From an uncultured Chloroflexia bacterium (lineage in GTDB: Bacteria; Chloroflexota; Anaerolineae; CG2-30-64-16), in the NCBI GenBank assembly GCA_963800615.1, contig CAWDBO010000021.1, positions 504,166 through 568,165 of the forward strand: a stretch of 64,000 bases of DNA. Direction: 5' to 3'. This document shows, piece after piece, positions 6,999 to 46,775 of this stretch (position 1 is its first letter; each line of letters starts with the position of its first letter). Below the pieces are notes generated by a model, which saw only the letters and a list, made by a program, of their open reading frames with translations, searched no databases and was not told where the DNA came from. A program made the position numbers and the translations under genes.

Positions 6999-8051
6999 GC
7001 TCGCCTACGGGGGCATTTGCCGGGGTGCGCTCCCACCTCGCAAACGTAGCTGTCGCAGCCTTGCGAAGGGGCCACTCTCGGGACGCTGGAAGCCCAGGGC
7101 CAGCAGATAGTTCTCCCCGCGTGCCCGGGCCCGCCCTCGGCCGGAGCGAATGCGCAATCTCGTCCTCGCGCAACTCCAGCCGCACCCGTCCCTTTACTTT
7201 CGAAGCGCTCGAGGTATTCTTTCGGCACCTGCAGCCGGCCCGCCGCATCCACCACGACCAACTCCTCCAGGCCGGCCGTCGCCCCGCCCTCCGGTGCAGC
7301 CGCCTCGGGCCGGCCGCTTTCGTCCTGGCGCCGCGTGTCTCGGTCGACGTCGCAGGCCGTCGTGTATCGTGACCACCCGGTTCACCTTGTAGGCGATCTC
7401 CGGATCGTGGCTGACAATCACGGTCGTGACGCCGTAAGCCGCGGTTAGGTCTTGCAAGGCCTGGTATATCGTGGCGGCCGTGGCGCTGTCCAGCTCCCCG
7501 GTCGGCTCGTCCGCAAGGAGGAGGGCGGGATTATTGGCCAGCGCGACCGCAATGGCGACCCGCTGTTGCTCTCCGCCCGACATCTGCTGCAGCCGGTGGC
7601 GCCGCCGGTCGGCCAGGCCGACCGAGTGCGCAGCAGCTCTTCGGCGCGCTGCCGCTTGCGCCGGCCCGTCACGCCGGCCAGCGTCATCGGCAGCATGACA
7701 TTCTCGACGGCGGTCAGATAGGGGACCAGGTTGCGCGCCCCTTGCTGCCATACGAACCCCACTTTAGAGCGGCGATACCGGTCGAGAGCCAGAGATCGGA
7801 CAGCTTCAGCAGCTCGCGCGCCGTCGACCCACACCCGGCCCGCCGACGGCCGGTCGAGGCCTCCCAGGATGTTCAGCAGGGTGGACTTCCCGCTGCCACT
7901 CACGCCGACGATGCCCAGCAGCTCGCCGCGCATCGACCACGAGGTCCAGGCCCTGCAGGGCCACCACTTCGAGGTCCGCGATCTTGTAGATCTTGACCAG
8001 GTTGTCGCAGATGATCAGGGGTCCCTGATTTCCGGCGTTCGGCTCGCGCAT
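6988..8051 (-). CDS. ABC transporter ATP-binding protein with C-terminal extension (VVVDAAGRLQVPKEYLERF...RVRLELREDEIAH), gene 2 of tandem pair; frameshifted
   Basis: Pieces 7806..8051, 7445..7933, 7194..7751, 6995..7261 and 6988..7248 carry Walker A (GVSGSGKSTLLN), LSGGEQQRVAIAVAL and LLLADEPTGELD. Confidence 0.6.
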
Positions 8052-19296: not shown

Positions 19297-20851
<1,555 letters not shown>

Positions 20852-20879
20852 GATGAGTAGTTAGCAGGGGCAGGGTCCT

Positions 20880-21130
20880 GGACCACGAAGGCGCGAAATG
20901 GTCTGGACTACGAAGCCACGAAGGCGTCTGGACCACGAAGCCACGAAGGCTGCGAAGGACACGAAGCACGAAGCGTCTGGACCACGAAGCCGCGAATTTG
21001 GCGAAGGACGCGAAGCCGCGAAGCTTCACGAAGCCGCCTGCGACCAACGTTCTTCGCGTTCTTCGTGCTTCGTGTCCTTCGCAGACGCTGTCGCGGCTTC
21101 GTGGTCCAAGTCACGTTACGTCTTTGCGGT
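20880..21130. repeat. Intra-operon repeat array: about 25-bp direct repeats (GTCTGGACCACGAAGCCACGAAGGC x3-4 plus degenerate CGAAG/CACGAAG units) followed by their inverted complement (..CTTCGTGTCCTTCGCAG..GCGGCTTCGTGGTCCAAG)
   Basis: Seen directly in sequence between the dehydrogenase stop (21145) and FGGY kinase start (20851); can fold into long hairpins. Confidence 0.6.
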
Positions 21131-21144
21131 CCAAAGTGGCGATC

Positions 21145-30100: not shown

Positions 30101-31220
30101 CTACCTGCGCTTTTCCGGGTAAAGCGATAACACGGCGTCGTCCGATGCAGCGCAAATGCCGCGCTCGGTAATCAGCCCCGTGACCAGCCGGGCGGGCGTC
30201 ACGTCAAACCCGTAATTGGCTGCCGGGCTTTCTTCGGGCGTCAGCAGCACTTCGACCAGCTCGCCCTCGTGCAGGCCCTCGATGAGCCTGACTTCCGTGC
30301 CGTTCCGCTGCTCGATGGGAATGTCCCGGACGCCGTCGCGCAGCTCCCAGTCGAAGGTCGAGGACGGCAGGGCCACATAGAACGGGATTCCGTTGTCGTG
30401 CGCGGCCAGGGCCTTCAGGTAGGTCCCGATCTTGTTGGCGACATCGCCAGTATACGCCACCCGGTCCGCCCCGACAATCACCAGGTCCACCAGTCCGTGC
30501 TGCATCAGGTGCCCGCCCGCGTTGTCGGCGATGACGGTGTGGGGCACGCCCTGCTGCACCATTTCCCACGCCGTAAGCCGCGCGCCCTGGTTGCGCGGCC
30601 GGGTTTCGTCGACCCAGACGTGGACGGGGATGCCTTCTTCGAAGGCCGCGTAGATGGGCGCGGTGGCCGAGCCGTAGTCGACAAACGCCAGCCAGCCCGC
30701 GTTGCAGTGGGTCAGGATGTTGACCGGCTCGCCGCCCTTGCGCCGGCTGATCTCGCGGATCAGCGCCACCCCGTTCTGCCCGATGCGGCGGCAGAACTCC
30801 GCGTCCTCGTCCGCGATCGCGCCGGCTGTTTCCAGCGCGGCCTGGATGCGCGAGCTCGGGGTCGCTGCCCGCCGCTTCCATCGCTGCCAGCTGCCGCTTG
30901 ACCGCCCATTCCAGGTTGACGGCGGTTGGCCGGGTGGCGATCAGCGTCGCGCCGTCCCGCTCCACCGCGGCCTGGAACGCCTCGGGCGACGAGCGGGGCA
31001 CGTGCAGCGCCGCAATGTACATGCCGTAGCCCGCGGCCGCGCCGATCAGGCCGGCCCCGCGCAGGTGCATGTCCGCAATCGCGACCGCCATATCCGCCAC
31101 CGTCGCCAGGTCCTCGATCACGAAGCGATGGGGCAGCCCCCGCTGGTCGATGATCTGGACGATCTCGGGATTGTCTTCTTTGAGCCAGATGGTCCGGTAG
31201 TGCCGGCCTTGTGCAAGCAT
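30101..31220 (-). CDS. mtnA: Methylthioribose-1-phosphate isomerase (MtnA, eIF-2B alpha/beta/delta family); one frameshift near 30800
   Basis: N-terminus [39 protein letters not shown] (30204..31220); C-terminus ..[38 protein letters not shown] (30101..30769). Confidence 0.75.
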
Positions 31221-32402: not shown

Positions 32403-34449
32403 TTGACACAAAGACCCCACGGCCAGCCGTGGCGATTGGCCTTACATATTTCCGTTGCGCTCGTCCTGCTGCTCCTCCTGGTCATCCCAGTGGTGAGCGC
32501 TGGCAGTGCGGCCGCAGCGGCGTCGGCGCCCATCACCTTCGCGGTGATTGGCGATTACGGAGCAGACACGAGCAATGAGGGGGCCGTCAGGTCACTCGTA
32601 AATGGCTGGTCACCCGCCTTCATTGCCACAGTAGGGGACAACTTCTACAATGCCGCCCTCGATTCAGGCGACACGGGCAACAAATACCACGAGTCGACGG
32701 GCAAGTACTACTGCAGCTATCTGAAGGATGTGGCCGGGACAGACACCTGTCCGACCGGCCAGGCCGCGACCAACGCGTTCTTCCCCGCGATGGGCAACCA
32801 TGACTACAGCGATGCGACGCCTGCGCCCGGAACCTACACCGACTACTTCACGCTGCCCGGCAGCGGCGTCGCCACGAGCGGCAGTTCGGGCAATGAACGA
32901 TACTATGACTTCGTCGAGGGACCCGTTCATTTCTTCGTCCTGAACAGCAACACGGCGGAGCCGGACGGCACGAGCAGCACGAGCGATCCAGGCGCGGTGG
33001 CTGCAGGCGCAGCTGGGCGCGTCCACGGCCGCCTGGAACATCGTGCTCTTCCACCATCCGCCCTACTCGTCCGATTCGTCGCACGGCTCGACGACCTACA
33101 TGCAGTGGCCGTTCGCCCAGTGGGGCGCGGACGCGGTGCTGGCCGGCCATGCCCACGATTACGAGCGCATCGTGCGCGATGGGATCGTGTACTTCGTGAA
33201 CGGGCTCGGCGGCGCGTCGTTGTACGGCTTCGGCACGCCGGTCGCCGGCAGCGCGTTCCGCTACAGCGCCAAGTACGGCGCCCAGCGGGTGACGGCTACC
33301 GACACCAGCCTGACGTTCGAGTTCGTCTCGGTGGATGGGGTGGTGCAGGACTCGTACGCGGTCTCGGCGGGTCAGGCCCCGACGCCGACCCCAACCGCGG
33401 CCGCCAGTGCGACGCCCGCGCCGACAACCGCCTCGACTGCGACGCCCGTCGCCGCCACTGCCACGCCCGTGCCTTCAGGTGCGGTCACTGTGGCCTTCCA
33501 GAACGGCGTTGCGCCGAGCTCGGCCTACGCGGGCGGCGACGATGCCTATCTGTCCCAGGCGAATCCGGGGAGCAACTATGGAGGGGCGAGCTCCTGCCTT
33601 GCCGATGGGGACGACCCGGTTGGCTCGGGAAACGATCTCTCGTGTATGCTGCGCTGGGATGTCAGCTCGATTCCGACGGGAAGCACGGTCACCGCGGCCG
33701 GCATCACGCTCAACGTGACCAACGCTTCGAACGGCAGCTATCCGATCTACCAGCTGCTGCAGCCGTGGCGTGAGGCGGAGGCGACGTGGAACGTGTTCGC
33801 GTCCGGGCAGGCGTGGGTGCGCCCGGCGCGCTGAGCAGCGCGGATCGCGGGGCAGAAGCGCTCGGCGCAGTTGCTGCGTCGGGCACCGGCTCGCGTACGG
33901 TCAACCTTAACAGTCGCGGGGATTGCGGCGGTTCAGTCCTGGATCGATTCGCCGGGTGGGAATCAGGGCTTGATCATTGCGGACACGAATGTCAGCGACG
34001 GTGCGGATTTCTCCTCGAATGAGTCCGGCACCGCGGCAAACCGGCCGAAGCTCACGATACAGTACCTGCCGCCCGCCGGTGGGAGTCAGCCGACGCCCAC
34101 GCCTGTGGTCTCCGACTCTCTGCACGTGGGCGATTTGGACGGCTCGGCGACGCGAGGGTCCAGCCACTGGGCCGCCACGGTCGTGATCACGGTGCATGAT
34201 GCGGCGCACAACGACCGTGCGGGTGTGACTGTGAGTGGGAGCTGGGGCGCGGGCGCATCCGGCACGGCCGCATGCACGACCGGAACGAATGGCGCATGCT
34301 CCGTCCGGAAGGGCTCGCTGTCCTCGTCGACGAACAGCGTGCAATTCAGCATCACGAGCGTAACGGCCAGCGGCGCCACCTATGACGCCGCCGCAAACCA
34401 CGACCCCGACGGTGACAGCGACGGCACGACCATCGTCGTGACCCGCTAA
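32403..34449 (+). CDS. Secreted multidomain metallophosphoesterase (calcineurin-like) with P/T-rich linker and C-terminal beta-rich accessory domains; 2 frameshifts
   Basis: Signal peptide (32403..), metallophosphatase motifs GDYG, GDNFY, GNHDY, GHAHDYER across 32403..33773 and 33043..33834; linker TPTPTAAASATPAPTTAS; C-terminal part in 33871..34449. Confidence 0.6.
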
Positions 34450-34618
34450 CCAGCTCACGAATGACCTCCGAGGTCTTCAAGACCTCGGAGGTCTGCCGCC
34501 CCCCGGGGAGCTCACGCAAACCACGACCCCGACGGCGACAGCGACGGCAGGACACTCGTCGTGACCCGCTAACCAGCTCACGAATGACCTCCGAGGTCTC
34601 GAAGACCTCGGAGGTCTG
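34393..34618. repeat. 103-bp imperfect tandem duplication (copy A 34393-34495, copy B 34516-34618, about 94% identity) covering the last 55 nt and stop codon of the phosphoesterase gene; each copy ends in a 13-bp-stem palindromic hairpin GACCTCCGAGGTC-N5-GACCTCGGAGGTC
   Basis: Read directly; copy A contains the TAA stop at 34447-34449. Confidence 0.7.
34465..34495. terminator. Bidirectional hairpin (13-bp perfect stem, 5-nt loop) between the convergent phosphoesterase and MttB-1 genes; second copy at 34588-34618
   Basis: GACCTCCGAGGTCTTCAAGACCTCGGAGGTC; no U-tract, so intrinsic terminator function is not shown. Confidence 0.4.
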
Positions 34619-34648
34619 TTTGCGAGCCCGGAGGTCTCGTTCCGATCC

Positions 34649-36022
34649 CTACAGTGCGGCCAACCCCATCGTCCGCACCTCGCACTTGATCTCTTCGTAT
34701 AGTCCATTCCAGGCTTGCGTCGGGTGCACGGTCACCAGGTCATATACTTCGTTAAACGGTAAGCCCTGATTTTCCGGCGCGCCCTTCTGGAACAGGAACT
34801 CGTAACGCTTCACGAGCGCGACTGCCAGCTCGTTGGCCCGCTCGAGATCGAGCGCCTGCTCCGTCGCGGCCCGGCCCACTTCGGCCATGAACCGCGCCTC
34901 GAGCCCGCTGGCATGGTGGACCTTGCCGTCGGCCGCACCGCAGCCCTCCAGGTGGCTCCCGCTGACCGTGTGGACGATCGCGTTGGCCGCGGTCTCGTAC
35001 AGCAGCTCGCGCGTTCCCGCGCCCGACTTCGGGTAGATGTCCCCCACGATGACGCACGGCGACCGTTGGGCGAACGCCTGCGCCACGATGCTGCTGACCC
35101 ACAGCACCGCCCGCGTGCTGGTCGCCACGTGCCGGATGTCGATGGGGTGAAGCAGGTGATAGTCCGCCGCGCAGCACAGGTTGGCGAGGATGAAGGAGGC
35201 GGCTTGCACCACCGCGGACCCCGGCGCGGCCCCGCCCATGCCGCCGACGATCACGCACGCGAGGCTCGCATTCAGCATCCCATAATCCAGCGAGTTGATC
35301 ACCCGCGCCAGGTTGCGGTTCTCGATCTTCAGCTCGTTCAGCATCGGCACAAGGTGCGCGTCGCACGGCCGCATGAAAGCGGGACTCGCGACCGAGAGGT
35401 CGCCGATCTCGGACACGCTGCTCTGTGCGGCCAGCAGCCCCGTGCCGGGCCGCCCGGCCTGGCGCAGCGCCTCGCGCAGGTAAGCCAGCTCGCGCCGGGT
35501 CGCGGTGATCTCCAGCGGCGAGCCTGTCTCCACCACCCGGCCGTCCACGTGCGTCAGCGTGCCGCAGGTGACCATGTCGATCAGCCGCTCCTGCGCGTAC
35601 GAGAGGGTCATCGGGACGAAGAGCTGCTCGGGAACCGGGGTGCCCGGCGTGCCGCCCCACGCCTTCGGTGGGCGCCGGTCACAGACCGTGCGGGCATCGA
35701 GCGTGCGCGCGTCCTTCCCCTCCCCCAGCGTGATCGACCGCGGCGCGGCGCGCAGGCCCTGCAGCAGCTCGTCGGGCGTAAAGCGGACGGCCCGGCCGGT
35801 TGAGTAGTTGTAGACCCCCTGCCGCTCGGCCAGCTCGAACGCGGCGTCGAACAGCGCGCTCGCCCGGGCCGGGTCGTCGTTGATCACCCGCGTCTTGTCC
35901 CAGTCCAGCCCGTGCTTCTTGACCAGCTCGCGGGTGGTCATCGCCACTTCATAGTCCCAATCCGACGCGGACAGCGCCCGGCCTTGCTCGCTGCGTTCGA
36001 GGATTTCGAGGAAATTGAGCAC
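34649..36022 (-). CDS. MttB-superfamily (trimethylamine-methyltransferase-like) corrinoid-dependent methyltransferase, non-pyrrolysine type (MttB-1)
   Basis: 457-aa uninterrupted ORF; GTG start at 36022 with AAGGAG RBS; no in-frame TAG. Confidence 0.8.
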   Translation of the reverse strand: MLNFLEILERSEQGRALSASDWDYEVAMTTRELVKKHGLDWDKTRVINDDPARASALFDAAFELAERQGVYNYSTGRAVRFTPDELLQGLRAAPRSITLGEGKDARTLDARTVCDRRPPKAWGGTPGTPVPEQLFVPMTLSYAQERLIDMVTCGTLTHVDGRVVETGSPLEITATRRELAYLREALRQAGRPGTGLLAAQSSVSEIGDLSVASPAFMRPCDAHLVPMLNELKIENRNLARVINSLDYGMLNASLACVIVGGMGGAAPGSAVVQAASFILANLCCAADYHLLHPIDIRHVATSTRAVLWVSSIVAQAFAQRSPCVIVGDIYPKSGAGTRELLYETAANAIVHTVSGSHLEGCGAADGKVHHASGLEARFMAEVGRAATEQALDLERANELAVALVKRYEFLFQKGAPENQGLPFNEVYDLVTVHPTQAWNGLYEEIKCEVRTMGLAAL

Positions 36023-36064
36023 GCTGAGTCTCCTTGTGAGTGAGGTGCTTGGATCAGATCGCCA

Positions 36065-36236
36065 CGAGACCTCCGAGGTCCTCGCCAGCGCTGCTGGCGC
36101 AAGACCTCGGAGGTCAACTCGGACCTCGGAAGTTAGCTCGGAGCCCCGAAGTCAGCTCGTACCTCGGAGGTCAGCCCGTATCGAGGTGAACTCGGGGACT
36201 CGGACCTCGGAGGTCAGCTCGGACCTCGGAGGATGC
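36065..36236. repeat. Array of about 8 tandem 19-20-bp repeats (consensus GACCTCGGAGGTCAGCTCG) with the same palindromic core as the 34.4-kb hairpins
   Basis: Read directly; lies between the amidohydrolase 3' end and the MttB-1 RBS. Confidence 0.65.
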
Positions 36237-36244
36237 TAACCCGA

Positions 36245-37638
36245 GAACTCGGGATGTACGCGGCGGAACGGCGCTGCCGCTGCGTCGCGGCAGCATAATA
36301 GTCGGCGAACTCGGCGCACAGCTGCGCGCCCGGCCGATGATCGCTTCCTCGTCCAGGCTGACGAAGGCCCCGTCGCGGCGCACGAACGCGCCGTCGACCA
36401 GCACGTCGCACGTCTCGCTGCCCGCGCCGTTCGACGCCAGGGCCCAGAAGAGCGAGTCGCGGTCCAGCGGGAAGAGGCTGCTGTTGCGCCTCAGGTCGAA
36501 GGTGATGATGTCGGCCCGCATGCCCGGCTCCAGCGCGCCCACCTCGTCGCCCAGCCCCAGCACCCGCGCGCCGCCCGCCGTCGCCAGCTCGAAGATCGTC
36601 CGCGGGTCGAGCCCCCGCAGGGCGCGCGGCATGATGTTGTGGTGCTGGAGGACGGAGAGCATGACGCTGAACAGGTTGTGCGTCACGCAGTCGGTGCCCA
36701 GGCCCACGGGCACGCCCGCCGCCAGCATGTAGGGCACGTACGCGCAGTAACCGAACCACGCATTCGTCGCCGGGCAGTGAACCAGGGCGGTCCCCGTCTC
36801 CGCCAGGACGTCGATCTCGCGCTCGTTCAGCAGCGTGCCGTGAAACAGCAGCGGTCCGCGGCCCCAGCAGGCCCGCCCCGCGCATGTGCCCGATCAGCCC
36901 GCCCTCCGCGGCCCACAGCGCATCCGATCGTTCCTTCTCGTCCGGCGATTCCGCGACGTGGACCGCGAACTGCACGCCGTGCTTCTCGGCCAGCTCCTTC
37001 GACCGGCGCAGGAAGCGGTCGTTGCAGTTGAACGTCGCATTCGGGTGGACCCCCACCCGGATCAGCCCGCCGGCCGCGCCGTGATGGTCGCGGATCGCGG
37101 CCTCGGTGTGCGCCAGGTACTCGGCCTCGTCGCGCGCATCGGGCAGGGCCACGCTGGTGATCATCTGCGGGTGGATCACCGTTCGCGCGCCCGCCGCCAC
37201 CGACGCGCGGTAGATCGCCTCGGGGAAGATCATCGCATCCGCGTGGGTCGTCGCGCCGTGCTTGAGGACGTTGACCAGCCCGAACAGGGTCAGGTCGTAC
37301 GCGCGCTCTTCCGTGAGCCAGTTGTAGGCGGGCCAGTAGATGCGATCCATCGCATCCACGATCCCGGCCACCGGCTCCTGCAGCCAGCCCGGGATCAGCA
37401 GCGTGTGCGCCTCGCCGAGATGGTTGTGGGCGTCCACCAGCCCGGGCATGACCAGCTTGTCGCTCGCGTCGAGCGTCTCGATCCCCGGCCGCCCCCCGAC
37501 CAGCGCCTCGATCTCGGCCGTCGGCCCCACCGCCGCGATCCGCGCGCCCTCCACGTACACCGCGCCGCCCTCGACGATGGCGCCCGCGTCCGCCCGGCGC
37601 ACCAGGTAGCGGCAGTTGCGGATGAGGATTCCGTTCAT
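36245..37638 (-). CDS. Amidohydrolase-superfamily deaminase (MtaD / guanine-deaminase / SAH-deaminase-like); 2 frameshifts; 3' end inside the repeat array, exact stop uncertain
   Basis: N-terminus MNGILIRNCRYLV..MPGLVDAHNHLGE (HxH metal site) in 36214..37638; C-terminal pieces in 36827..38590 and 36171..36737 (..PVGLGTDCVTHN..). Confidence 0.6.
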
Positions 37639-37649
37639 GCGCCCCCGCG

Positions 37650-38590
37650 CCTACTCGCGCGCGTACGGCACGCCCAGCTGGCTCGGCGCCTCCGAGCGCG
37701 CCCGGTTGACCATCATTGCGACGATCGCAAAGACATACGGGATCGCCAGCAGGATCTGGTACGGGATCTGCACGCCGATGCCCTGCACCTGGAGCTGGAA
37801 CGCATCGAGCAGCGCGAAGATCAGCGCGGCCAGCGTGATCCGCCACGGCAGCCAGTTGCCCTGCGATGACGATCACGATGGCGAGCCACCCCCGCCCCGC
37901 CGTGATCCCCGGCACGAACCGGGGCGACGCGCCCAGGGTGAGGGCCGCGCCCGCCAGCCCCGCCATCAGCCCGCCGAAGATGGTCGCCAGGTAGCGCAGC
38001 CGGGCCACGTTCACGCCCTTCGTGTCGACCGCCTTGGGGCTCTCGCCCACCGCCCGCAGCTGCAGCCCGTACTTGGTCCGGTACATGAAGAACCAGATCA
38101 CCGGCACCAGCAGGAAGGCCAGGTACGTCAGCGGCCGCTGCCCGAAGAGCACGGGGCCGGCAATGGGCAGGTCGGACAGCACCGGGATGTTCACCGGGTC
38201 GAACAGCCGGATGGTGACCAGGTCGCCCCGGAGGCCGAAGACCAGGCGCAGCAGGAACACCGACAGCCCCGCGCCGAGCAGGTTCAGCGCCATGCCGGTC
38301 ACGATCTGCTCCACCTTGAGCGTCACGGCCATGAACGCCATCAGCAGCGCCATCAGCCCGCCCGTCGCGGCCCCGGCCAGCAGGCCCAGCAGCAGCGAAT
38401 TGGTCCAGAAGGTCACGACGTAGCTGGTGAACGCGCTCAGCAGCATCATCCCTTCCACGCCCAGGTTCATGACGCCCGAGCGCTCGGTGACCATCTCGCC
38501 CAGCGCGGCCAGCAGCAGCGGCGTCGCCAGGCGCAGCGTGGAAGCCAGGATGCTAGCGATGACTGCCGTCTGCAGCAGCTGAGTCGGCAT
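37650..38590 (-). CDS. BMP-family ABC transporter permease 2; one frameshift
   Basis: N-terminal 240 aa in ORF 36827..38590 (MPTQLLQTAVIAS..); C-terminus ..FAIVAMMVNRARSEAPSQLGVPYARE then TAG near 37650. Confidence 0.55.
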
Positions 38591-39704
38591 CGGTTATCCT
38601 CTTGATCCGGAAGCGTGCGAGCACGAACGCGGCCAGCACGCACAACAGCAGGATGGCCTGCATCGCCTCGATAATCGCGGACGAAACGCCCGTCGTCGTC
38701 TGGAGCCGGGCCGCGCCGTTGGTCAGCCCGCCGAACAGGACCGCGGCCAGCACCACGCCCAGCGGATCGAGGTTGGCGAGCATCGCCACGATGATGCCCG
38801 TGTAGCCCAGCCCCGAGGCCAGGTCGAGCACCAGGCGGTACTGCACGCCGAACAGCTCGCCCGCGCCGGCCAGCCCCGCCAGCCCCCCGCTCAGGATCAT
38901 CACGACGACGATCGTGAGCGGTACGTTCGTGCCCTTGAACCGCACCGCGGTCGGATTGAAACCGAGCGCCCGTATCTCGAAGCCCAGCGGCGTCCGGTCC
39001 AGCAGGATCTTCACGAACGCAGCCGCGAGGAGCGCCACGAAGAGCCCGATGTGCAGGCCGGAGGCGGGCACAAGGTTCGGGAACCGCAGCGGCGCAGGGA
39101 TCAGCAGCGACTGCTGGTAGGCCGAGCTCGGGTCCTTCCAGGGACCGCCGTTCGAGACCATGAAGGCCACGAAATAGAGCATGATGTAGTTCAGCATCAT
39201 GGTGGAGATGATCTCGTCCACCCGGAAGCGCACCTTGAGCAGGCCGGATATCGCGCCCAGCAGCGCGCCGCCCGCCAGCGCAAAGACGAAGACCAGGACG
39301 AACAGCACCGGCCGTGGGTAGCTGCTGAACAGGGTGTAGGCGAAGAACCCGGCCGCGCCGCCCGCGATGAGCTGCCCCTCCTGCCCGATGTTCCAGATCT
39401 TGGCCCGGAAGGCGACGGCGGCCGACAGGCCGGTCAGGGTGAGGGTGGTGGCGCGCACCATCGTCTGCAGGACCGCCCGCCGGGTGCCGAACGCGCCCAG
39501 GAACAGCGCGCCGAATGCTTCGGCCACGTTCACCTTGGCGATGAGCAGAAACACGCTCGAAATCGCCAGGCCGACGATAATGGCAACTACGATCCACAGC
39601 ACCTGCGACCAGCGGCCCGCGTCCTCGCGCTGCTCGACGCGCCACCGCGGCCTTCTCCCGGCGTCCTGGGTCTCGGCTGCGAGGGATGTGTCGGGGTTGG
39701 TCAT
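38553..39704 (-). CDS. BMP-family ABC transporter permease 1
   Basis: ATG (MTNPDTSLAAETQ..) in an ATGA overlap with the upstream ATPase stop; about 380 aa with multiple TM helices (ORF 38553..40070). Confidence 0.65.
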   Translation of the reverse strand: MTNPDTSLAAETQDAGRRPRWRVEQREDAGRWSQVLWIVVAIIVGLAISSVFLLIAKVNVAEAFGALFLGAFGTRRAVLQTMVRATTLTLTGLSAAVAFRAKIWNIGQEGQLIAGGAAGFFAYTLFSSYPRPVLFVLVFVFALAGGALLGAISGLLKVRFRVDEIISTMMLNYIMLYFVAFMVSNGGPWKDPSSAYQQSLLIPAPLRFPNLVPASGLHIGLFVALLAAAFVKILLDRTPLGFEIRALGFNPTAVRFKGTNVPLTIVVVMILSGGLAGLAGAGELFGVQYRLVLDLASGLGYTGIIVAMLANLDPLGVVLAAVLFGGLTNGAARLQTTTGVSSAIIEAMQAILLLCVLAAFVLARFRIKRITDADSAAADGSHR

Positions 39705-41221
39705 GCTACCTCGTCCACGCAGCCCGCCATCAGCAGGCCGATCTGCTCCAGCCTGGCCTCCCCGGCTTCGAACACGCCCATGATCTGCCCCTTGTAGAGC
39801 ACCGCAATCCGGTCCGACAGGTCCATGATCTCGTCCAGATCTTCGGAGCTCAGCAGGATGCCCACGCCCTCCGCCCGCTTCTCCAGCAGCCTCCGGTGTA
39901 CGTATTCGATCACCCCCACGTCCAGGCCCCGCGTCGGCTGGTTCGCCAGCAGGGCCTGCGGGCAGTGGGTGAACTCGCGCGCCAGGATGATCTTCTGGAT
40001 GTTGCCGCCCGACAGGTGCTTCGTCGTCTGCTGCAGCGATGGCGTCTTGATCTCGAACGTCGAGACGCACATCTTTGCGAACTTCCGGATTTGCGGGAAG
40101 TTCAGGAACGGCCCGCGGCGGTACATCTGCGAGCGCTGCTGTCCGAGCAGCAGGTTCTCCGTCACCGAGAATTCGGGCACCAGGCCCTCGTGCAGCCGGT
40201 CCTCCGGCACGTGACCCACGCCCCGGTGCATCAGGTGGCCGGCCGACCGGTTCGTCACGTCCTCACCTTCGAGCAGCACCTGTCCCGACGTCGCCTTGCG
40301 CACGCCCGCGATGACCTCGAACAGCTCCTTCTGGCCGTTGCCCGAGATGGCTGCGAGCCCCAGGATTTCCCCCCGGCGCAGGGTCAGCGAAACCCCGCGC
40401 AGCGCCTCTTGCCCCCGGTCCCCCAGCGCGTGCAGGTCCTTGACCTCCAGCACGGTCTCGCTGCCGGGCGGGCAGTCCTTGTGGACGCTGAAGACGACTT
40501 CCCGGCCCACCATCATCCGCGCCAGGTCGGCCTTGCTCACGTCCGCGGTGTTGACGGTCGCGACGTACCGGCCCCGCCGGAACACGGTCACCCGGTCCGA
40601 CACCTGTTTGACCTCGTTGAGCTTGTGGGTGATCAGGATGATCGACAGGCCGCGCCGGGTCATCGCGCGGATCGTGAGGAAGAACTTCTCGGTTTCCAGC
40701 GGCGTCAGCACGGCCGTCGGCTCGTCGAGGATGAGCAATTCCGAGCCGACATAGAGGGCCTTGAGGATTTCAACCCACTGCTGCTCGCCCACCGAAAGCT
40801 GCCAGATGCGCGCGTGCAGGTCCAGTTGGATCCCGTACTCTTCGCACAGCTTCCGGAGCGCGGCTTCCACCTGCCGCAGGTCCGGGACGACGGGGGAGCC
40901 TGGCGTCCCGACGATGACGTTCTCGATCACCGTCAGGGGCGCCACCAGCGCGAAATGCTGGTGCACCATGCCGATGCCCAGCCGGATCGCGTCGCTCGGC
41001 GAGGTCAGCTTGACCGGCTGTCCCTTGTAGAAAATGCGGCCGGAGTCGGGATGGTAGAAGCCGTACAGGCACTCGGCCAGGGTCGACTTGCCCGCGCCGT
41101 TCTCGCCCAGCAGGCAGTGGATTTCGCCCCTCCGCACATCCAGCGAGACCGCGTCGTTCGCCACCACCTGGCCGAAACGCTTGGTCAGGGCTTCGACCCT
41201 CACGATGGATGTTTCTTCCAT
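39701..41221 (-). CDS. BMP-associated ABC transporter ATP-binding protein, duplicated NBD
   Basis: ATG at about 41221 (MEETSIVRVEALTKRFGQVVANDAVSL..GENGAGKSTL); intact 506 aa. Confidence 0.8.
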   Translation of the reverse strand: MEETSIVRVEALTKRFGQVVANDAVSLDVRRGEIHCLLGENGAGKSTLAECLYGFYHPDSGRIFYKGQPVKLTSPSDAIRLGIGMVHQHFALVAPLTVIENVIVGTPGSPVVPDLRQVEAALRKLCEEYGIQLDLHARIWQLSVGEQQWVEILKALYVGSELLILDEPTAVLTPLETEKFFLTIRAMTRRGLSIILITHKLNEVKQVSDRVTVFRRGRYVATVNTADVSKADLARMMVGREVVFSVHKDCPPGSETVLEVKDLHALGDRGQEALRGVSLTLRRGEILGLAAISGNGQKELFEVIAGVRKATSGQVLLEGEDVTNRSAGHLMHRGVGHVPEDRLHEGLVPEFSVTENLLLGQQRSQMYRRGPFLNFPQIRKFAKMCVSTFEIKTPSLQQTTKHLSGGNIQKIILAREFTHCPQALLANQPTRGLDVGVIEYVHRRLLEKRAEGVGILLSSEDLDEIMDLSDRIAVLYKGQIMGVFEAGEARLEQIGLLMAGCVDEVA

Positions 41222-41348
41222 GCGCCTCTTGCTAACCGTCGTGCTCTCGAACCGGCGCCGCTTGGCGCCCGCTCTATGAGCAGGGAGAGGTGTCTCCCGC
41301 GCTCGGGCGGAAGACACCTCTTCGCGTCATGACTTGCGTCCGTGTCCG

Positions 41349-42524
41349 CTACTGATCGGATTTCGGGGTGTCGATATTGACGGGCACCGTGAACTTGCCG
41401 CTCATGATGTCGGCCTGCTTGGCCTTGATCGCGTCCAGCACGTCCTGCGGCACCTGGGCGGCCTGCGGGTTCCAGCCCGCCAGGTCCGATCCGCCGTCCT
41501 TCATGCCGAACCAGACCGGCTTGTCGTTGCCGGCCCACGGCTTGCCTTCGGCCGCATGCGCGTACCACTGGTCGATGGCCCACTTGATCCCCGGGTCCCA
41601 CCGGGCCACGGTGCTGTTGGGCACGTTCTTCGGTGCCAGCGCGCTCTGGTCGCCGAAGTTGCCGAAGCACTGGATGTTCTTCGACGTGCAGGCTTCCCAC
41701 CCGTCGGCGAGCTGCAGCATGTAGTCGACGCCGGCCGCGGCCTGCGCGCTCGTCGCCTCCGCGCCCTTGATCGGGTCGTACCAGCTCTGGATGAACGAAA
41801 CCGTCGTCTTCACGTTCGGGTTCGCATCCTTCGCGCCCTGGAAGAACGCGTTGATCTCGTCGTTGACGTCGTCGGCTTCGAAGGTGCCCACCGCGCCGAC
41901 CCGGTTGGTCTTGGTCATCTTGCCTGCCATCATGCCCAGCAGGTAAGCCGGCTCGTGCACCCGCATATACACCCACTGCTGGTTCTTGCCGAGCCCGCGG
42001 TTGCCCGAGCCTGTCACCACGAACATCGTGTTCGGGTACTGGTCCATCACCTTCTCGACCTGGTCCGAGTAGGTGCTGTTCGTCCAGATGATGTCATACT
42101 TGCCGCTGTCGGCATAGTTCTGAATCACCGGCGTGGCGTCGTCGCCAAACGTGTTGTCGGTCACCTGGTAGGTGATGTTCAGCCCGTGGGGGCTTTCGGC
42201 CTTGACGCGGTCCAGTGACTTCAGGAACTGCGCGTCCCACTGGCTTTCGAGGCTGCAGCAGGTGATGACGGCGATACGGAGGTCCTTGGGTGCGGCGCCG
42301 CTGCTCGCGGCCGGGGCCTTTGTCGGCTCAGCTGCCGGCGCTTGTGCCGCGGGTGCCTTCGTCGGCTCGGCCGCGGGTGCTTGGGCTGCCGGCGCCTGTG
42401 TCGCAGGTGCCTGGGCAGGTGCGGCAGGGGCCGGCGCGGCGGGCGCTGCGCAGGCCGCGGTGACGAGGATCACCACGACCAGTGCAACTGCGAGGACAGC
42501 GAGTGAGTTCCTTCTCTCCAGCAT
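41349..42524 (-). CDS. BMP-family (PnrA/Med-like, nucleoside-type) ABC substrate-binding lipoprotein
   Basis: ATG at 42524 with AGGAGGAAGG RBS; lipobox LVTAACAAP; APA/QAP linker; BMP fold. Confidence 0.8.
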   Translation of the reverse strand: MLERRNSLAVLAVALVVVILVTAACAAPAAPAPAAPAQAPATQAPAAQAPAAEPTKAPAAQAPAAEPTKAPAASSGAAPKDLRIAVITCCSLESQWDAQFLKSLDRVKAESPHGLNITYQVTDNTFGDDATPVIQNYADSGKYDIIWTNSTYSDQVEKVMDQYPNTMFVVTGSGNRGLGKNQQWVYMRVHEPAYLLGMMAGKMTKTNRVGAVGTFEADDVNDEINAFFQGAKDANPNVKTTVSFIQSWYDPIKGAEATSAQAAAGVDYMLQLADGWEACTSKNIQCFGNFGDQSALAPKNVPNSTVARWDPGIKWAIDQWYAHAAEGKPWAGNDKPVWFGMKDGGSDLAGWNPQAAQVPQDVLDAIKAKQADIMSGKFTVPVNIDTPKSDQ

Positions 42525-42614
42525 GACCTTCCTCCTGTTTGCTGTGTTTGTAAGCGTCGCGCATTGCGCTGTATTTGTAAGCGTCGCGCCGGGATGGGCC
42601 GGCGCTCCATCCTC

Positions 42615-42649
42615 CCCCTCTCCTGACCCGCAGGTCAGGAGAGGGGGCC
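42615..42649 (-). terminator. 15-bp perfect-stem hairpin (CCCCCTCTCCTGACC-CGCA-GGTCAGGAGAGGGGG) immediately 3' of MttB-2
   Basis: Read directly; lies between the MttB-2 stop (42662) and the direct-repeat element upstream of the BMP operon. Confidence 0.45.
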
Positions 42650-42661
42650 AGGGGGTGAGGT

Positions 42662-44035
42662 TCAGTTCAGAGGCAACCCCCACCCTTTCGCCTCCTGCTT
42701 TATCTCCTCGTAAAGACCCATCCATTCACGGCTCGGCTCGACCGTCTCGACGTCGTAGACCTCGTCAAACGGCCGGCCGTACGGCTTCTTGTCAAGCTGC
42801 TCGCGATACGCTTCGTACGCGCACCGCACGATCTCGTCCGCGCGGCCCCGCTCCAGCCCGGCCGCCGCCCGCATGACCTCTCCGTTGAAACGCGCCTCGA
42901 GCCCGCTGAAGTGGGCCGGAATGCTGCCGGTGGCCGAGCGCGGGCCCAGGATGCGGCTGCAGCCGGAAACGGTGCAGAGCGTCGTAAAGGCAACGCATTC
43001 GTGTAGTAACACTCTCGTCCCGGGACCGCCCACGGGCGTCAGGGTCATGTTCGTCATCAGGTGCGTGTTCCGGGCCAGCGCCTGGCAGGCGAGGCTCGTC
43101 GCCTGCATGACCTCTTTTCCCGTATCGTTGAACTGGAACGGGTGCGTCGGCGACGACCCGACGCAGGTTGCCATGAAGACCGCGCTGAGCGCGATCATCG
43201 CCGCCGTTATCAGGACGGCCTGGCCTTCGACGCCGCCCCCCAGCCCGCCGTAGATCGGGTTGGCGTAGGGATCGACGATCCCGCCCATCCGGATGGCGTG
43301 CGTTAGCTTGTTAAGGATATCGAAGTTCGTCTTGAGCTCGGACAGGATGCCGAACGTGTGCAGGTCGGTCGACCGAAGTCCCAGGGGATTCGCCGTCGAA
43401 AGCTGACCGGCAGCGCTCATGCTCAACATCACGCCGGTCCACGCCATGCCCGGCCGGCCTGCGCGCTCCAGAACCTGCCGCATCAGGTCGACCTCTTCCC
43501 ACGCCGCGAGGATCTCGGTGGGCGAGCCGACCCGGATCTCCTGGCCGCGCACGGTCATCAGGCTCGGCGCACAGGTCACGTCGACCAGCGGCTCTTTCAC
43601 GTAGCTGAGCATCACGGGAACGAACAATTCCTCCGGCAGCGGCGAGCCGATCGGACTGCCCATGTTCAGGGGTGGAAATGCAGCGCCAATTGGCCGGAAG
43701 CGTTCGTGGACCGCGTCGGTTCCGGTTCCCTCCCATACGTCGGCAGGCGCCTCACGTAGGAGGTCGAGGAGCTCCTGCCGGCTGTGCAGAATAACCCGGT
43801 TGGTGGATTGGCAGTATACACCGCAGCCCGCGAGAAAGTCCAACGCGGCTTCGAAGGTGCGGTCCGCCAGGTCGTCGTCGAGGTTGACGATGTGGTCCCG
43901 GTCGACGTGGACGCCGTACGCCCGCACGACCCGGCGGATGCCCTGGGTCACTTGCCGGTTGAACGCTTCCTCTTCCAGGAGCGGGCCGGTCAGGCTGCGG
44001 TTGAGGAGTTCCAGCATCCTGCCTGTGAGGTCCAT
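42662..44035 (-). CDS. MttB-superfamily methyltransferase, non-Pyl (MttB-2)
   Basis: 457-aa uninterrupted ORF with full-length MttB-family similarity. Confidence 0.8.
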   Translation of the reverse strand: MDLTGRMLELLNRSLTGPLLEEEAFNRQVTQGIRRVVRAYGVHVDRDHIVNLDDDLADRTFEAALDFLAGCGVYCQSTNRVILHSRQELLDLLREAPADVWEGTGTDAVHERFRPIGAAFPPLNMGSPIGSPLPEELFVPVMLSYVKEPLVDVTCAPSLMTVRGQEIRVGSPTEILAAWEEVDLMRQVLERAGRPGMAWTGVMLSMSAAGQLSTANPLGLRSTDLHTFGILSELKTNFDILNKLTHAIRMGGIVDPYANPIYGGLGGGVEGQAVLITAAMIALSAVFMATCVGSSPTHPFQFNDTGKEVMQATSLACQALARNTHLMTNMTLTPVGGPGTRVLLHECVAFTTLCTVSGCSRILGPRSATGSIPAHFSGLEARFNGEVMRAAAGLERGRADEIVRCAYEAYREQLDKKPYGRPFDEVYDVETVEPSREWMGLYEEIKQEAKGWGLPLN

Positions 44036-44062
44036 CTGTGCGCCTCCGCCCTCTGATCTACG

Positions 44063-44711
44063 TCAGGCGGTCATCAGCCTGGCCGCCTGCTTCACCGCGT
44101 CGATCGCGTCGTCGCCGTAGCCGTCCGCGCCGGCCTTCCTGGCCCATTCCACGCTGACCGGCCCGCCGCCGACCAGGATTTTGAAGCGGCCGCGATGCTT
44201 GTCGCTCTCTTTTACCATGTTGATCGCGTCGCGCACGTAGGGCAGGGAGGGGAGCATCAGGGCCGAGATCGCGATGACGTCGGCCTTGAACTCGCTCGCG
44301 CCCTTCACCACGTCGAGCGGCGAGACGTTGACCCCAAGGTCGCGCACCTCGAAGCCGTTGACTTCCAGCATGGAGCGCACGATGTTCTTGCCGATGTCAT
44401 GCAGGTCGCCCTGGATGGTGCAGATTGCGACCCGGCCCCTGTACGTGGCCTCGATCTCGCCAGCCTTGACATAAGGCTTCAGCGCTTCCTGGACCGCCTT
44501 CACCACGTCGGCCGATTCCATCATCTCGGGCAGGAAGATGTCGAGCCGGCTGAACTGGTCGCCGATGTCCTGCAGGCAAGGTTGGATGCAGTCGAGGAAG
44601 ATTGCGGCCGGCGACTCGCCCGCTTCGGCCAGCCGCTGCGCCTCGGCTGCGCCGGCATCGACGTCGCCCTCCCGGATCGCGCTGTTCGAGCGCCGCGTAC
44701 AGGGGCTTCAT
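44063..44711 (-). CDS. Cobalamin-binding corrinoid protein 1 (B12-binding-2 cap plus Rossmann B12 domain, MtmC/MttC/MtgC-like); one frameshift in the cap domain
   Basis: ATG at 44711 (MKPLYAALEQR..), then ILEGDVDAGAAEAQRLAEAG..DIFLPEMMESADVV; DLHDIGKNIV (DxHxxG) in ORF 44063..44524. Confidence 0.7.
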
Positions 44712-45365
44712 GCCCGCGCCTCCACCCCTAACAGCGCCTTGCAGAGCTCGACCGCGGCCGCGGCATCGCCGGCATAGCCGTCCGCGCCTACCTCTTTGGC
44801 CCATTCTTCGGTAGCCGCGCCGCCGCCGACGATCACGCGGAAGCGCTGCCGCGCGCCGACTTCGTCGAAGACGCGGACCGTGCGCTTCGCCGCGGGCAGC
44901 GTCGTCGTCATCAGCGCCGACAGCGCGACGATCTGGCAGCCCGTTTCCTCCGCGGCCGAGAGGAACCGGCTCGGCTTCACGTCGCGGCCGAGATCGACGA
45001 CCCGGAACCCGTGCGCGGTCAGCAGCGCCTTCACGATGTTCTTGCCGATGTCGTGAACGTCGCCCTCGACCGTGCCCAGGACGACCGTGCCCAGGACCAG
45101 CGGCGCCTGACCCGCGGCCTTCGTGGCTTCTTCCAGCACCGCGGTCGCCGCCTTCGCCGCCTCGCCCGCCATCATCAGCTCGGGCAGGAAGATTTCGAAG
45201 TCCTGGAAGCGCCGGCCGACCTCGCTCAGCGTCGGCACGACCACCTCCTGCACCACCGCAAGCGGGTCCGCGCCCGCGGCCACGGCCTCCCGGGTCAGCT
45301 GCCGCGGCGCGCACGTCGTCCCCCTCGCGCAGCGCGGCGCCGAGCTCTTCGTAAATGCGTTCCAT
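44708..45365 (-). CDS. Cobalamin-binding corrinoid protein 2; one frameshift near 45300; TGA stop overlaps the corrinoid-1 ATG (ATGA)
   Basis: MERIYEELGAALREGDDVRAA.. then TREAVAAGADPLAVVQEVVVPTLSEVGRRFQDFEIFLPELMMAGEAAKAA...VEGDVHDIGKNIV...; contains in-frame 15-bp tandem duplication (VLGTVVLGTV). Confidence 0.7.
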
Positions 45366-45366
45366 T

Positions 45367-46775
45367 TCACCTGCCACGGCGCACCTCTTTCCAGCCCCTG
45401 TCGAGGTCCAGTCCCATGTCGCACAGCTTCGTCCGCACTTGCCCGTAGAGGTCCAGCCATTCGGGCAGCGGCTCGACGGTGTCCAGGTTGTAGATCTCCG
45501 CAAACGGCTTCCCGGGGTCCGGCGTCGCCGCCTGGCTCTCGTAATGCGCCAGCATCGCCAGCGCCAGCTCGTTCGCCTCGCCGCGCTTCAGCCCGCGGCT
45601 CGCGTGCATCACCTCTGCGTTGAAGCGGCACTCCAGCCCGCTCGTGTGATCCGCGCGGCTCCCGCCGGTCGCACCCACGCCGAGGCTGTTCACCCCGCAC
45701 ACCATCGAGACCACGGACACGGCCGCGACCTCCCACAGGACCTGTTCGGTACACAGCCCAGCCCGGGTGTATGGCGTGCAGGTCGTGATCATCGGCGTGT
45801 TGCGGCTCAGCGCCTGGCCCGAGACCGCGTAGACCCACAGGCCGAGCCGGTCGCTGTTGTGCGACCACCGGAGCGACATGTGGCCGTGGATGTGGTAGGA
45901 GCAGTGGTAGCAGACCGCGCCCAGGATGTGCGCGGCGACGGTTGCCACCGCGGTCCCTTCCGCGCCGCCCGCCAGCCCGCCGATCAGCGGCGTCTGCAGG
46001 TCGACGATGTGCATGTCCCGGCCGAGCATCCAGGCGACGCGCGATAGCTGGTCGTAGTTCGTCTTGAGCTCGGGGATCTGCGTCACCAGGAACGCGTCGG
46101 AGGGCCGGAGCCCGTTGTCCTCGTCGCAGGCGGCCAGTTTGGCCGCGCAGTTCAGCGGCGCCGCAACGTCGTTGATGTGCATCCCCGGCCGGCCCGCCTT
46201 CCGCAGCGCCTCCACGCGCGGCCGCGGCGTCGCGCCGGGCTGCCAGCATCTCGTTCGGCGACCCCGGCACGATCGGCCGGCCCATGTAGGTGGAGACCGA
46301 CCCGGCGCCCAGGCAGTCGACCAGCGGCTCGACCGCGCAGCTTTCGAGGATCAGCGGGTGGCAGCGCTCGCTGCACGGGGTGCCGGTCGGACCGCTGTGG
46401 ATGACCGCGGGCGCAGTGCCCTCCACCTCCAGATGCTCCATCCGCACCGCGTCGCGGCCCGTCCCGAGCCGCACGCTCGCCCGGCGCGGCCGCCACCGCG
46501 TCCTCGACCTCCTCCCGGCTGAAGAGGATGCGGCGCTCGGTCGTCTGGTTATAGACGCCCATTTCGACGAACAGGTCGAGCCCGGCCCGGTACACCCGGT
46601 CCGCCAGGTCGTCGTCCGCCGGAACCACCTTGTTGCGGTCAAACTTGATCCCGTAATGCTTCACGAGCTCGCTGATTCGACGGGCGAGGGCCATGTCGAA
46701 GTCGGACTCGCGGGTGAACGGTCCGTTCTCCGACCGTTCGACGATGACGGGTAAGCGGTTGCTGGATGCTTGCAT
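45367..46775 (-). CDS. MttB-superfamily methyltransferase (MttB-3); 2 frameshifts
   Basis: N-terminus MQASSNRLPVIVERSENGPFTRESDFDMALARRISELVKHYGIKFD (46152..46775), middle in frame of 44708..46642, C-terminus 45367..46215. Confidence 0.7.

Follow-up and report, generated by a model that had tools for sequence, protein, structure and literature searches.

The repeats on both sides of an MtmB-family methyltransferase gene in a 64-kb stretch of DNA from an uncultured Chloroflexia bacterium (contig CAWDBO010000021.1; the whole 64,000-nt stretch is called the window here) are, with good confidence, hairpins of the repetitive extragenic palindrome (REP) type or of the type of REP doublets forming hairpins (REPINs), which stand at gene 3' ends, have been amplified locally in tandem and belong to a Chloroflexota family linked to a REP-associated tyrosine transposase (RAYT). 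The hairpin unit is 33 nt long (AGACCTCSGAGGTCT-NNN-complement). Its commonest form has two 15-nt arms, AGACCTC[C/G]GAGGTCT, around a 3-nt loop of unconstrained sequence (15 + 3 + 15 nt).

The 33-nt hairpin in the window and in other genomes

The 13-mer GACCTC[C/G]GAGGTC has eight sites within 1.8 kb of the window and none elsewhere in the 64 kb. Seven start at 34463, 34481, 34586, 34604, 36068, 36103 and 36203, and the eighth, at 36160, carries one mismatch. With up to one mismatch allowed, the core GACCTCGGAGGTC gives 15 strand matches against 0.19 expected, a number that none of 100 shuffles reached, and all 15 are confined to 34463-34616 and 36068-36215. The repeats that an earlier note on this DNA had described on the two flanks of the methyltransferase gene are thus real. 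A looser search of the window with a 15-mer (up to three mismatches) found extra sites elsewhere at chance level only.

The same hairpin is widespread in other genomes. The genome scan used one genome per species and two cores within 30 nt, reported in 8-kb blocks, and its totals and per-genome counts are lower bounds (loci from other genomes are given by L numbers). The two-core pattern is found in at least 119 blocks from at least 89 assemblies, where we estimate about 0.5 by chance, and 98 of the 119 listed blocks carry a Chloroflexota label, the majority being from Anaerolineae, Caldilineales and Thermoflexia. At least 23 assemblies contribute two to six separate blocks, with up to seven copies in one block; the window holds one hairpin cluster in its 64 kb.

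A 5-nt spacer between the cores, which results in the 33-nt length, is present in 76 of the 127 copies listed. The ends of the element are sharp, with A at position -1 in 69 and T at position +1 in 68 of these 76 copies and random bases further out. In 123 of the 127 listed copies, the base at the centre of one arm complements that of the other, which points to a single strand that folds and not to a pair of independent duplex sites. An alignment of 93 copies, which includes the first hairpin of the window (one mismatch to the 33-nt consensus), has the consensus AGACCTCCGAGGTCTnnnAGACCTCGGAGGTCT and a mean column identity of 91%. In this alignment, 97.5% of the cells are paired and 11 of the 15 pairs have changed on both sides, which none of 500 shuffles reached. 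Nineteen variant copies retain all 15 pairs despite two to six substitutions.

The Rfam 15 search of window positions 33500-37000 yielded only chance matches (E > 1), and the viral-contig collection contains no copy of the hairpin, suggesting that the element is not phage-borne. In the full-text literature, the 13-mer occurs only in an unrelated mammalian primer paper, and the literature on Chloroflexi or Anaerolinea palindromic repeats, REPINs and RAYTs returned general REP papers with no description of the 33-nt element. Metagenome-assembled genomes (MAGs) labelled Acidobacteriota or Vicinamibacterales (L039, L056, L072, L080, L108 and L110) have hairpins that share the 13-bp base, their stem being longer (ATTTT...AAAAT) and their loops measuring 21-26 nt. 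They may point to a relative of the family in a second phylum, or to mis-binned contigs.

The hairpin stands mostly at gene ends. An open reading frame (ORF) of at least 100 aa ends less than 20 nt before 50 of the 127 listed copies, compared with a mean of 7.75 and a maximum of 13 at random positions within these loci. The preceding genes are unrelated: their 91 proteins cover 131 Pfam families, with gyrA, polA, CTP synthase and Lon among the genes, and only the Bmp binding proteins were seen three times upstream of the hairpin. Based on crude gene calls (the longest ORFs), the gene pairs around the copies are in the same direction in 41 cases, convergent in 10 and divergent in 8. In three other Anaerolineae assemblies, the hairpin directly follows the Bmp-type substrate-binding gene of an ABC operon (L038 3713-4757, L062 790-1915 and L101 4005-5215), which corresponds to the classic position of E. 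coli REPs, for example, that between malE and malF.

Intragenic copies, which were counted only with a Pfam-confirmed protein, are found in frame inside genuine genes: in the same loop of valyl-tRNA synthetase (ValRS) in two assemblies, in an interdomain linker of PheT, and in MoeA. Several restriction-modification or methylase genes, which make up about one-third of the confirmed intragenic cases, also carry the hairpin in frame. The 33-nt insert corresponds to 11 codons, and the core is free of stop codons in every frame, encoding the peptides TSEVxxTSEV, DLRGLxDLGGL or RPPRSxRPRRS. The 11-aa segment of ValRS (L113, L066) is absent from all 30 aligned orthologues, which are 70-88% identical over this segment, indicating that it is an insertion.

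The RAYT-like transposase

A protein of about 200 aa, with the HUH motif PTHYHxL and the tyrosine motif YIHxNPV, is encoded between the clustered hairpins of L001 and L052. Homologous genes are found in 9 of the 119 listed hairpin blocks, with a hairpin 3-33 nt away from one or both gene ends. A RAYT-like gene tightly flanked by the hairpin is the classic REPtron layout. The only NCBIfam match of these proteins is NF047646, named "REP-associated tyrosine transposase", with E values of 1e-14 to 1e-17 over the full profile length. They also match the Pfam family Y1_Tnp, the best match among solved structures is the E. coli TnpA-REP (4er8), and homologues in the JGI data are named RayT.

Most RAYT-like genes themselves hold an in-frame hairpin (..QTSEVxxTSEVS..) just past the HUH motif, and homologues of 188-189 aa are found without it. 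The empty sites in the ValRS and RAYT homologues are an indirect sign of hairpin mobility. The internal copy has decayed in the RAYT-like gene of L027, and some RAYT homologues read through at the C-terminus into the flanking hairpin. A query with an approximate IS200 TnpA sequence retrieved only one unrelated Y1 fragment, located 4 kb from a hairpin in L029.

Repeat layout around the MtmB gene and its proposed explanation

The gene between the repeats, which the earlier note had taken for MttB, belongs to the MtmB family according to its Pfam match (Table 1). Its stop codon is at 34649-34651 on the minus strand, and the gene closes a minus-strand operon, which further includes genes for a second MtmB paralogue, a binding protein of the Bmp type, ABC permeases and the amidohydrolase.

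On the 3' side of the gene, the proposed tandem duplication with hairpins is confirmed by Tandem Repeats Finder (TRF; 34392-34618, period 123, 1.8 copies, 94% matches) and by a repeat finder, which places the two copies at 34392-34495 and 34515-34618. Pairwise alignment of the copies shows six differences, two of which are in the hairpin loop (six substitutions over the first 105 nt), and a fainter similarity extends over the whole 123 nt. The first copy contains the last 58 nt of the ORF at 33871-34449, including the stop. Each copy carries a hairpin with a 14-bp stem and a 3-nt loop.

On the 5' side, the 19-bp array is likewise real. TRF reports a degenerate array (36103-36232, 6.6 copies, 68% matches), and seven direct units plus one inverted copy (36068-36080) can be seen by eye. 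By pairing with 36103-36115, the inverted copy forms the base of a compound hairpin that has a nested 7-bp stem and sits 44 nt upstream of the MtmB start. This long-spacer design recurs in L002, L062, L074 and other loci. The array overlaps the 3' end of the amidohydrolase gene, and the final codons are repeat-encoded in either candidate frame. The low-complexity tail SEVRADLRGPS assigned to this protein holds for the frame 36171-36737; read in the alternative frame, the protein terminates at 36214 in ..SILRGPS and the stop.

Table 1. Repeats and genes at the MtmB locus of the window, and loci in other genomes with hairpins inside genes
Feature	Position	Strand	Details
Duplication copy 1	34392-34514		Gene 3' end, spacer of 12 nt, REP hairpin and some 20 nt holding a degenerate third arm; TRF, repeat finder, alignment
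REP hairpin 1	34462-34494		TGACCTCCGAGGTCT-TCA-AGACCTCGGAGGTCT; 12 nt past phosphoesterase stop; -27.9 kcal/mol (RNA fold), fold z -6.8
Duplication copy 2	34515-34637		Non-coding duplicate of gene 3' end, REP hairpin, degenerate half-site; TRF, repeat finder, alignment
REP hairpin 2	34585-34617		Loop CGA; 31 nt past MtmB stop; -28.2 kcal/mol on minus strand (RNA fold)
Degenerate half-element	34623-34637		CGAGCCCGGAGGTCT, 3 mismatches; 20 nt beyond preceding arm
Compound REP hairpin	36067-36116		Two 13-mers form the base, nested 7-bp stem CGCCAGC/GCTGGCG the top; -44.3 kcal/mol (RNA fold), z -7.3
Degenerate 19-nt tandem array	36103-36240		G-type arm + AGCTCG spacer, 7 units, all direct; TRF, repeat finder, translations
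Phosphoesterase-like gene (secreted, frameshifted), 3' segment	33871-34449	+	Stop 34447-34449; ORF list, translations
MtmB-family methyltransferase gene	34649-36022	-	457 aa, GTG start, AAGGAG 9 nt upstream; PF05369, E 1.9e-94
Amidohydrolase, frameshifted in assembly	36214-37638	-	Frame change near 36737; Pfam Amidohydro_1 split across two frames
RAYT-like gene with in-frame hairpin	L001 3884-4486		
RAYT-like gene with in-frame hairpin	L052 2383-2985		
RAYT-like gene with in-frame hairpin	L068 5226-5819		
RAYT-like gene with in-frame hairpin	L097 1255-1905		
RAYT-like gene with in-frame hairpin	L003 72-698		
RAYT-like gene with in-frame hairpin	L015 7760-7999		
Intragenic hairpin locus	L113 254-2588		
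Intragenic hairpin locus	L066 6061-7996		
Intragenic hairpin locus	L044 89-2528		
Intragenic hairpin locus	L043 3403-4699		
Intragenic hairpin loci	L068, L093, L096, L085		

The layout can be described by few steps. A cognate RAYT-like HUH tyrosine transposase, presumably encoded elsewhere in the genome, would have mobilised the hairpin on single-stranded DNA, with one copy landing just past the phosphoesterase stop and a second copy between the amidohydrolase and MtmB genes. The 123-bp duplication would then have copied the gene 3' end together with its hairpin, placing the additional hairpin behind the convergent MtmB stop. The 19-nt array may have arisen by replication slippage: each arm is a near-palindrome, so that the pair of arms also forms direct repeats at a distance of about 18-19 nt, a geometry that favours slippage and makes such an array possible. 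In the host, the RNA hairpins (-28 to -44 kcal/mol) would stand at the 3' ends of the amidohydrolase, MtmB and phosphoesterase messages. There they could halt 3' exonucleases or cause transcription to pause or end, as has been described for E. coli REPs. No control specific to MtmB is implied.

Comparable amplification is found elsewhere in the family. L069 has a 191-bp tandem duplication of the 3' end of a GtrA-like gene with its hairpin (7547-7927) in an independent short-read MAG, L098 has three hairpins within 190 nt (2190-2381), one of them with compensated stem changes, and direct cores in a 42-nt array are present in L106 (1753-2086), whose MAG is labelled Myxococcaceae. The earlier note had named, as the outcome that would speak against its proposal, a common genome-wide REP element without local enrichment together with the same position of the methyltransferase gene in relatives. 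The REP is common and the gene position is conserved; the local enrichment of the core is nevertheless real, because of the tandem amplification.

Several observations weigh against a RAYT-linked REP family as the explanation. The RAYT-like proteins score 54-64 bits, below the NF047646 equivalog cut-off of 80, and the 64-kb window contains no RAYT homologue, which is expected if there is about one per genome, as for known RAYTs. The palindrome has no GTAG or CGTC tag at its end, the outer bases being random. The loops differ between copies within one genome, and recent copy-and-paste is not evident. Direct arrays are rare in the family (4 of 127 listed pairs are of the same type), and the frameshifts in the assembly mean that fine details of the array could contain errors. 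Furthermore, the hairpins are not followed by a T-run (beyond +1, T is not enriched in the 3' flanks of 76 copies), and their role as terminators or stabilisers is putative.

The hairpins could alternatively be look-alikes of ordinary terminators, with the duplication and the array being artefacts of a noisy long-read assembly. The hairpins do come right after stop codons and several genes in the window are frameshifted, but we consider this explanation improbable. The same 30 stem bases recur in at least 89 assemblies from different assemblers, which convergence cannot explain, and the hairpins lack the T-run. Six differences between the duplication copies, and about 30% between the array units, do not resemble errors of collapse or expansion, and a similar duplication is present in the short-read MAG of L069.

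A role as a shared regulatory element, also suggested in the earlier note, would make the 15-bp palindromes operators for a dimeric transcription factor controlling MtmB or the methyltransferase operon. The arms have the 7-1-7 palindromic form that is typical of operators, the stretch from the amidohydrolase to the start of MtmB contains several copies, and the hairpin follows the Bmp-type gene of similar ABC operons in three loci, of which only L062 has an MtmB-family gene. However, the complementarity of the arm centres, seen in 123 of 127 listed pairs, reflects compensation between the arms and not within an arm, which fits a folded single strand and not a duplex-binding dimer. The 131 Pfam families among the neighbouring genes argue against a control element of MtmB, as do the in-frame copies inside ValRS, PheT and MoeA and the location of most copies after stop codons rather than before promoters. 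We therefore regard the operator explanation as very unlikely.

Slightly less likely still is that MtmB is a mobile cassette, with the flanking repeats as sites for its insertion or excision. A cassette bounded by recombination sites would fit the presence of the core on either side of a single gene and its absence from the rest of the 64 kb, and the closest relatives indeed are without the repeats. But in the relatives with 72-75% MtmB identity (L120, L121 and L123), MtmB ends the same Bmp-ABC-permease operon without any hairpin element, following an XDH-like gene or directly the permease. L122, with a 67%-identical MtmB homologue, has another gene context and also lacks the element. In addition, the element is strand-symmetric and so defines no orientation, the hairpin follows many unrelated genes and also sits inside genes, and no integrase or recombinase adjoins the repeats in the window. 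Hairpins bracketing a gene are also found in L012 and L027, since REPs stand at the 3' ends of consecutive genes. An XDH-like molybdoenzyme takes the place of the amidohydrolase in the relatives. A reading as DNA-uptake sequences was dropped, as about one element per tens of kb is, in our judgement, far too sparse.

Returning to the genes of the window, the phosphoesterase-like gene reads in three successive frames (32403, 33043 and 33871), the middle one of which matches CBM96. The MtnA-like gene (30101-31220), the phosphoesterase (32403-34449) and the amidohydrolase (36171-37638) each need one or two frame changes, which suggests indel errors of a long-read assembly, or pseudogenes. Many ValRS matches on megabase contigs are likewise truncated or frameshifted. 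The minus-strand cluster at 34649-46642 comprises three MtmB-family genes (34649-36022, 42662-44035 and, as a 644-aa fusion of MtmB with a B12-binding domain, 44708-46642), a Bmp/PnrA-type ABC transporter and the amidohydrolase. The MtmB genes of the cluster have no in-frame stop, suggesting that they are non-pyrrolysine MtmB homologues.

A second, unrelated repeat block is located at 20878-21133, with about five direct units that are built from the heptamer CACGAAG and have the consensus GGACCACGAAGCCACGAAGGCG. Inverted copies (CTTCGTG...) come after the direct units and create a long imperfect palindrome. The block is in the gap upstream of a gene on the minus strand whose start is near 20841. 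One of its 20-mers has 12 exact matches in JGI metagenome contigs, in CACGAAG runs, some of which are just past ORF ends. The block is probably another REP-like family.

Significance and comparison with known elements

For the window, the REP reading removes a false lead, leaving MtmB as neither a cassette nor the target of a dedicated switch. It also explains three oddities of the locus: the pseudo 3' end of a gene, the amidohydrolase's low-complexity tail and the repeat array. Beyond the window, the cognate repeat of the Chloroflexota genes annotated as RayT is now defined. Annotation can gain from this with respect to 11-aa TSEV or DLRG inserts, contig breaks and misjudged gene ends.

A broader, tentative proposal is that the family represents an undescribed and unusually long-lived REP-RAYT lineage. 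Its 33-nt, stop-free hairpin of 11 codons would have been preserved with hardly any change throughout most of the Anaerolineae, tolerated routinely in essential genes and carried in its own transposase gene, and Acidobacteriota hairpins would have a related 13-bp base. If this is true, the in-frame hairpin just past the HUH motif hints that the RAYT may regulate or target itself. A REP-RAYT pair whose sequence is conserved this widely would be useful for studying the persistence of such elements. The stem conserved in at least 89 assemblies, the exact 11-codon module and the copy inside the transposase gene are of interest for the REP and RAYT field.

The earlier note had called the repeat REP- or MITE-like, of which the REP part holds, given the 33-nt hairpin family and its RAYT-like transposase. 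Like MITEs, which are miniature transposable elements with inverted repeats, the hairpin is non-autonomous, dispersed and bears an inverted repeat. A target-site duplication is a feature of MITEs, and the hairpin has no duplication of the flanking bases. MITEs are 70-300 bp long, with terminal inverted repeats around an internal segment (Di Nocera 2013, PMC3733652), whereas the element has only 33 nt and no internal segment. With Rho-independent terminators, it shares a GC-rich hairpin right after the stop codon. It differs from them in lacking a U-tract, with no terminator-like site found in 34300-36400, and in that the sequence, and not the shape alone, is conserved across species.

Rickettsia palindromic elements (RPEs) are known only from Rickettsia and have several times the length of the 33-nt hairpin. 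Both RPEs and the intragenic REPs described by Di Nocera et al. (2013, PMC3733652) are, like the hairpin, in-frame palindromes that add a short peptide in tolerant loops, and the insert of the 33-nt element differs in being exactly 11 codons.

The closest resemblance is to the REPs and REPINs of E. coli and Pseudomonas with their RAYT (TnpA-REP, 4er8). A REP is a palindrome of about 14-40 nt that folds into a stem-loop, and the element, with 33 nt, a stem of 14-15 bp and a 3-nt loop, has this length and shape, as well as the shared consensus and the gene-end position reported above. Similarities to the E. coli and Pseudomonas elements are the short consensus hairpin, seen in more than one block in at least 23 assemblies, the location mostly just after genes and between same-direction or convergent genes, and the single small HUH/Y1 transposase gene flanked by the repeat. 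As in a REPIN doublet, the element consists of two inverted half-sites. Two large REP superfamilies are tagged GTAG or CGTC at one end of the palindrome (Di Nocera 2013, PMC3733652), and the untagged 33-nt element is not a member of either. Compared with the E. coli and Pseudomonas REPs, it also has only 33 nt and perfect stems, and each arm is itself a palindrome. The Chloroflexota transposase is only distantly related to the RAYTs of these bacteria and falls below the NCBIfam cut-off. At least about 10% of the 33-nt copies are in frame inside genes, and the stem sequence is common to at least 89 species-level assemblies rather than to one genus.

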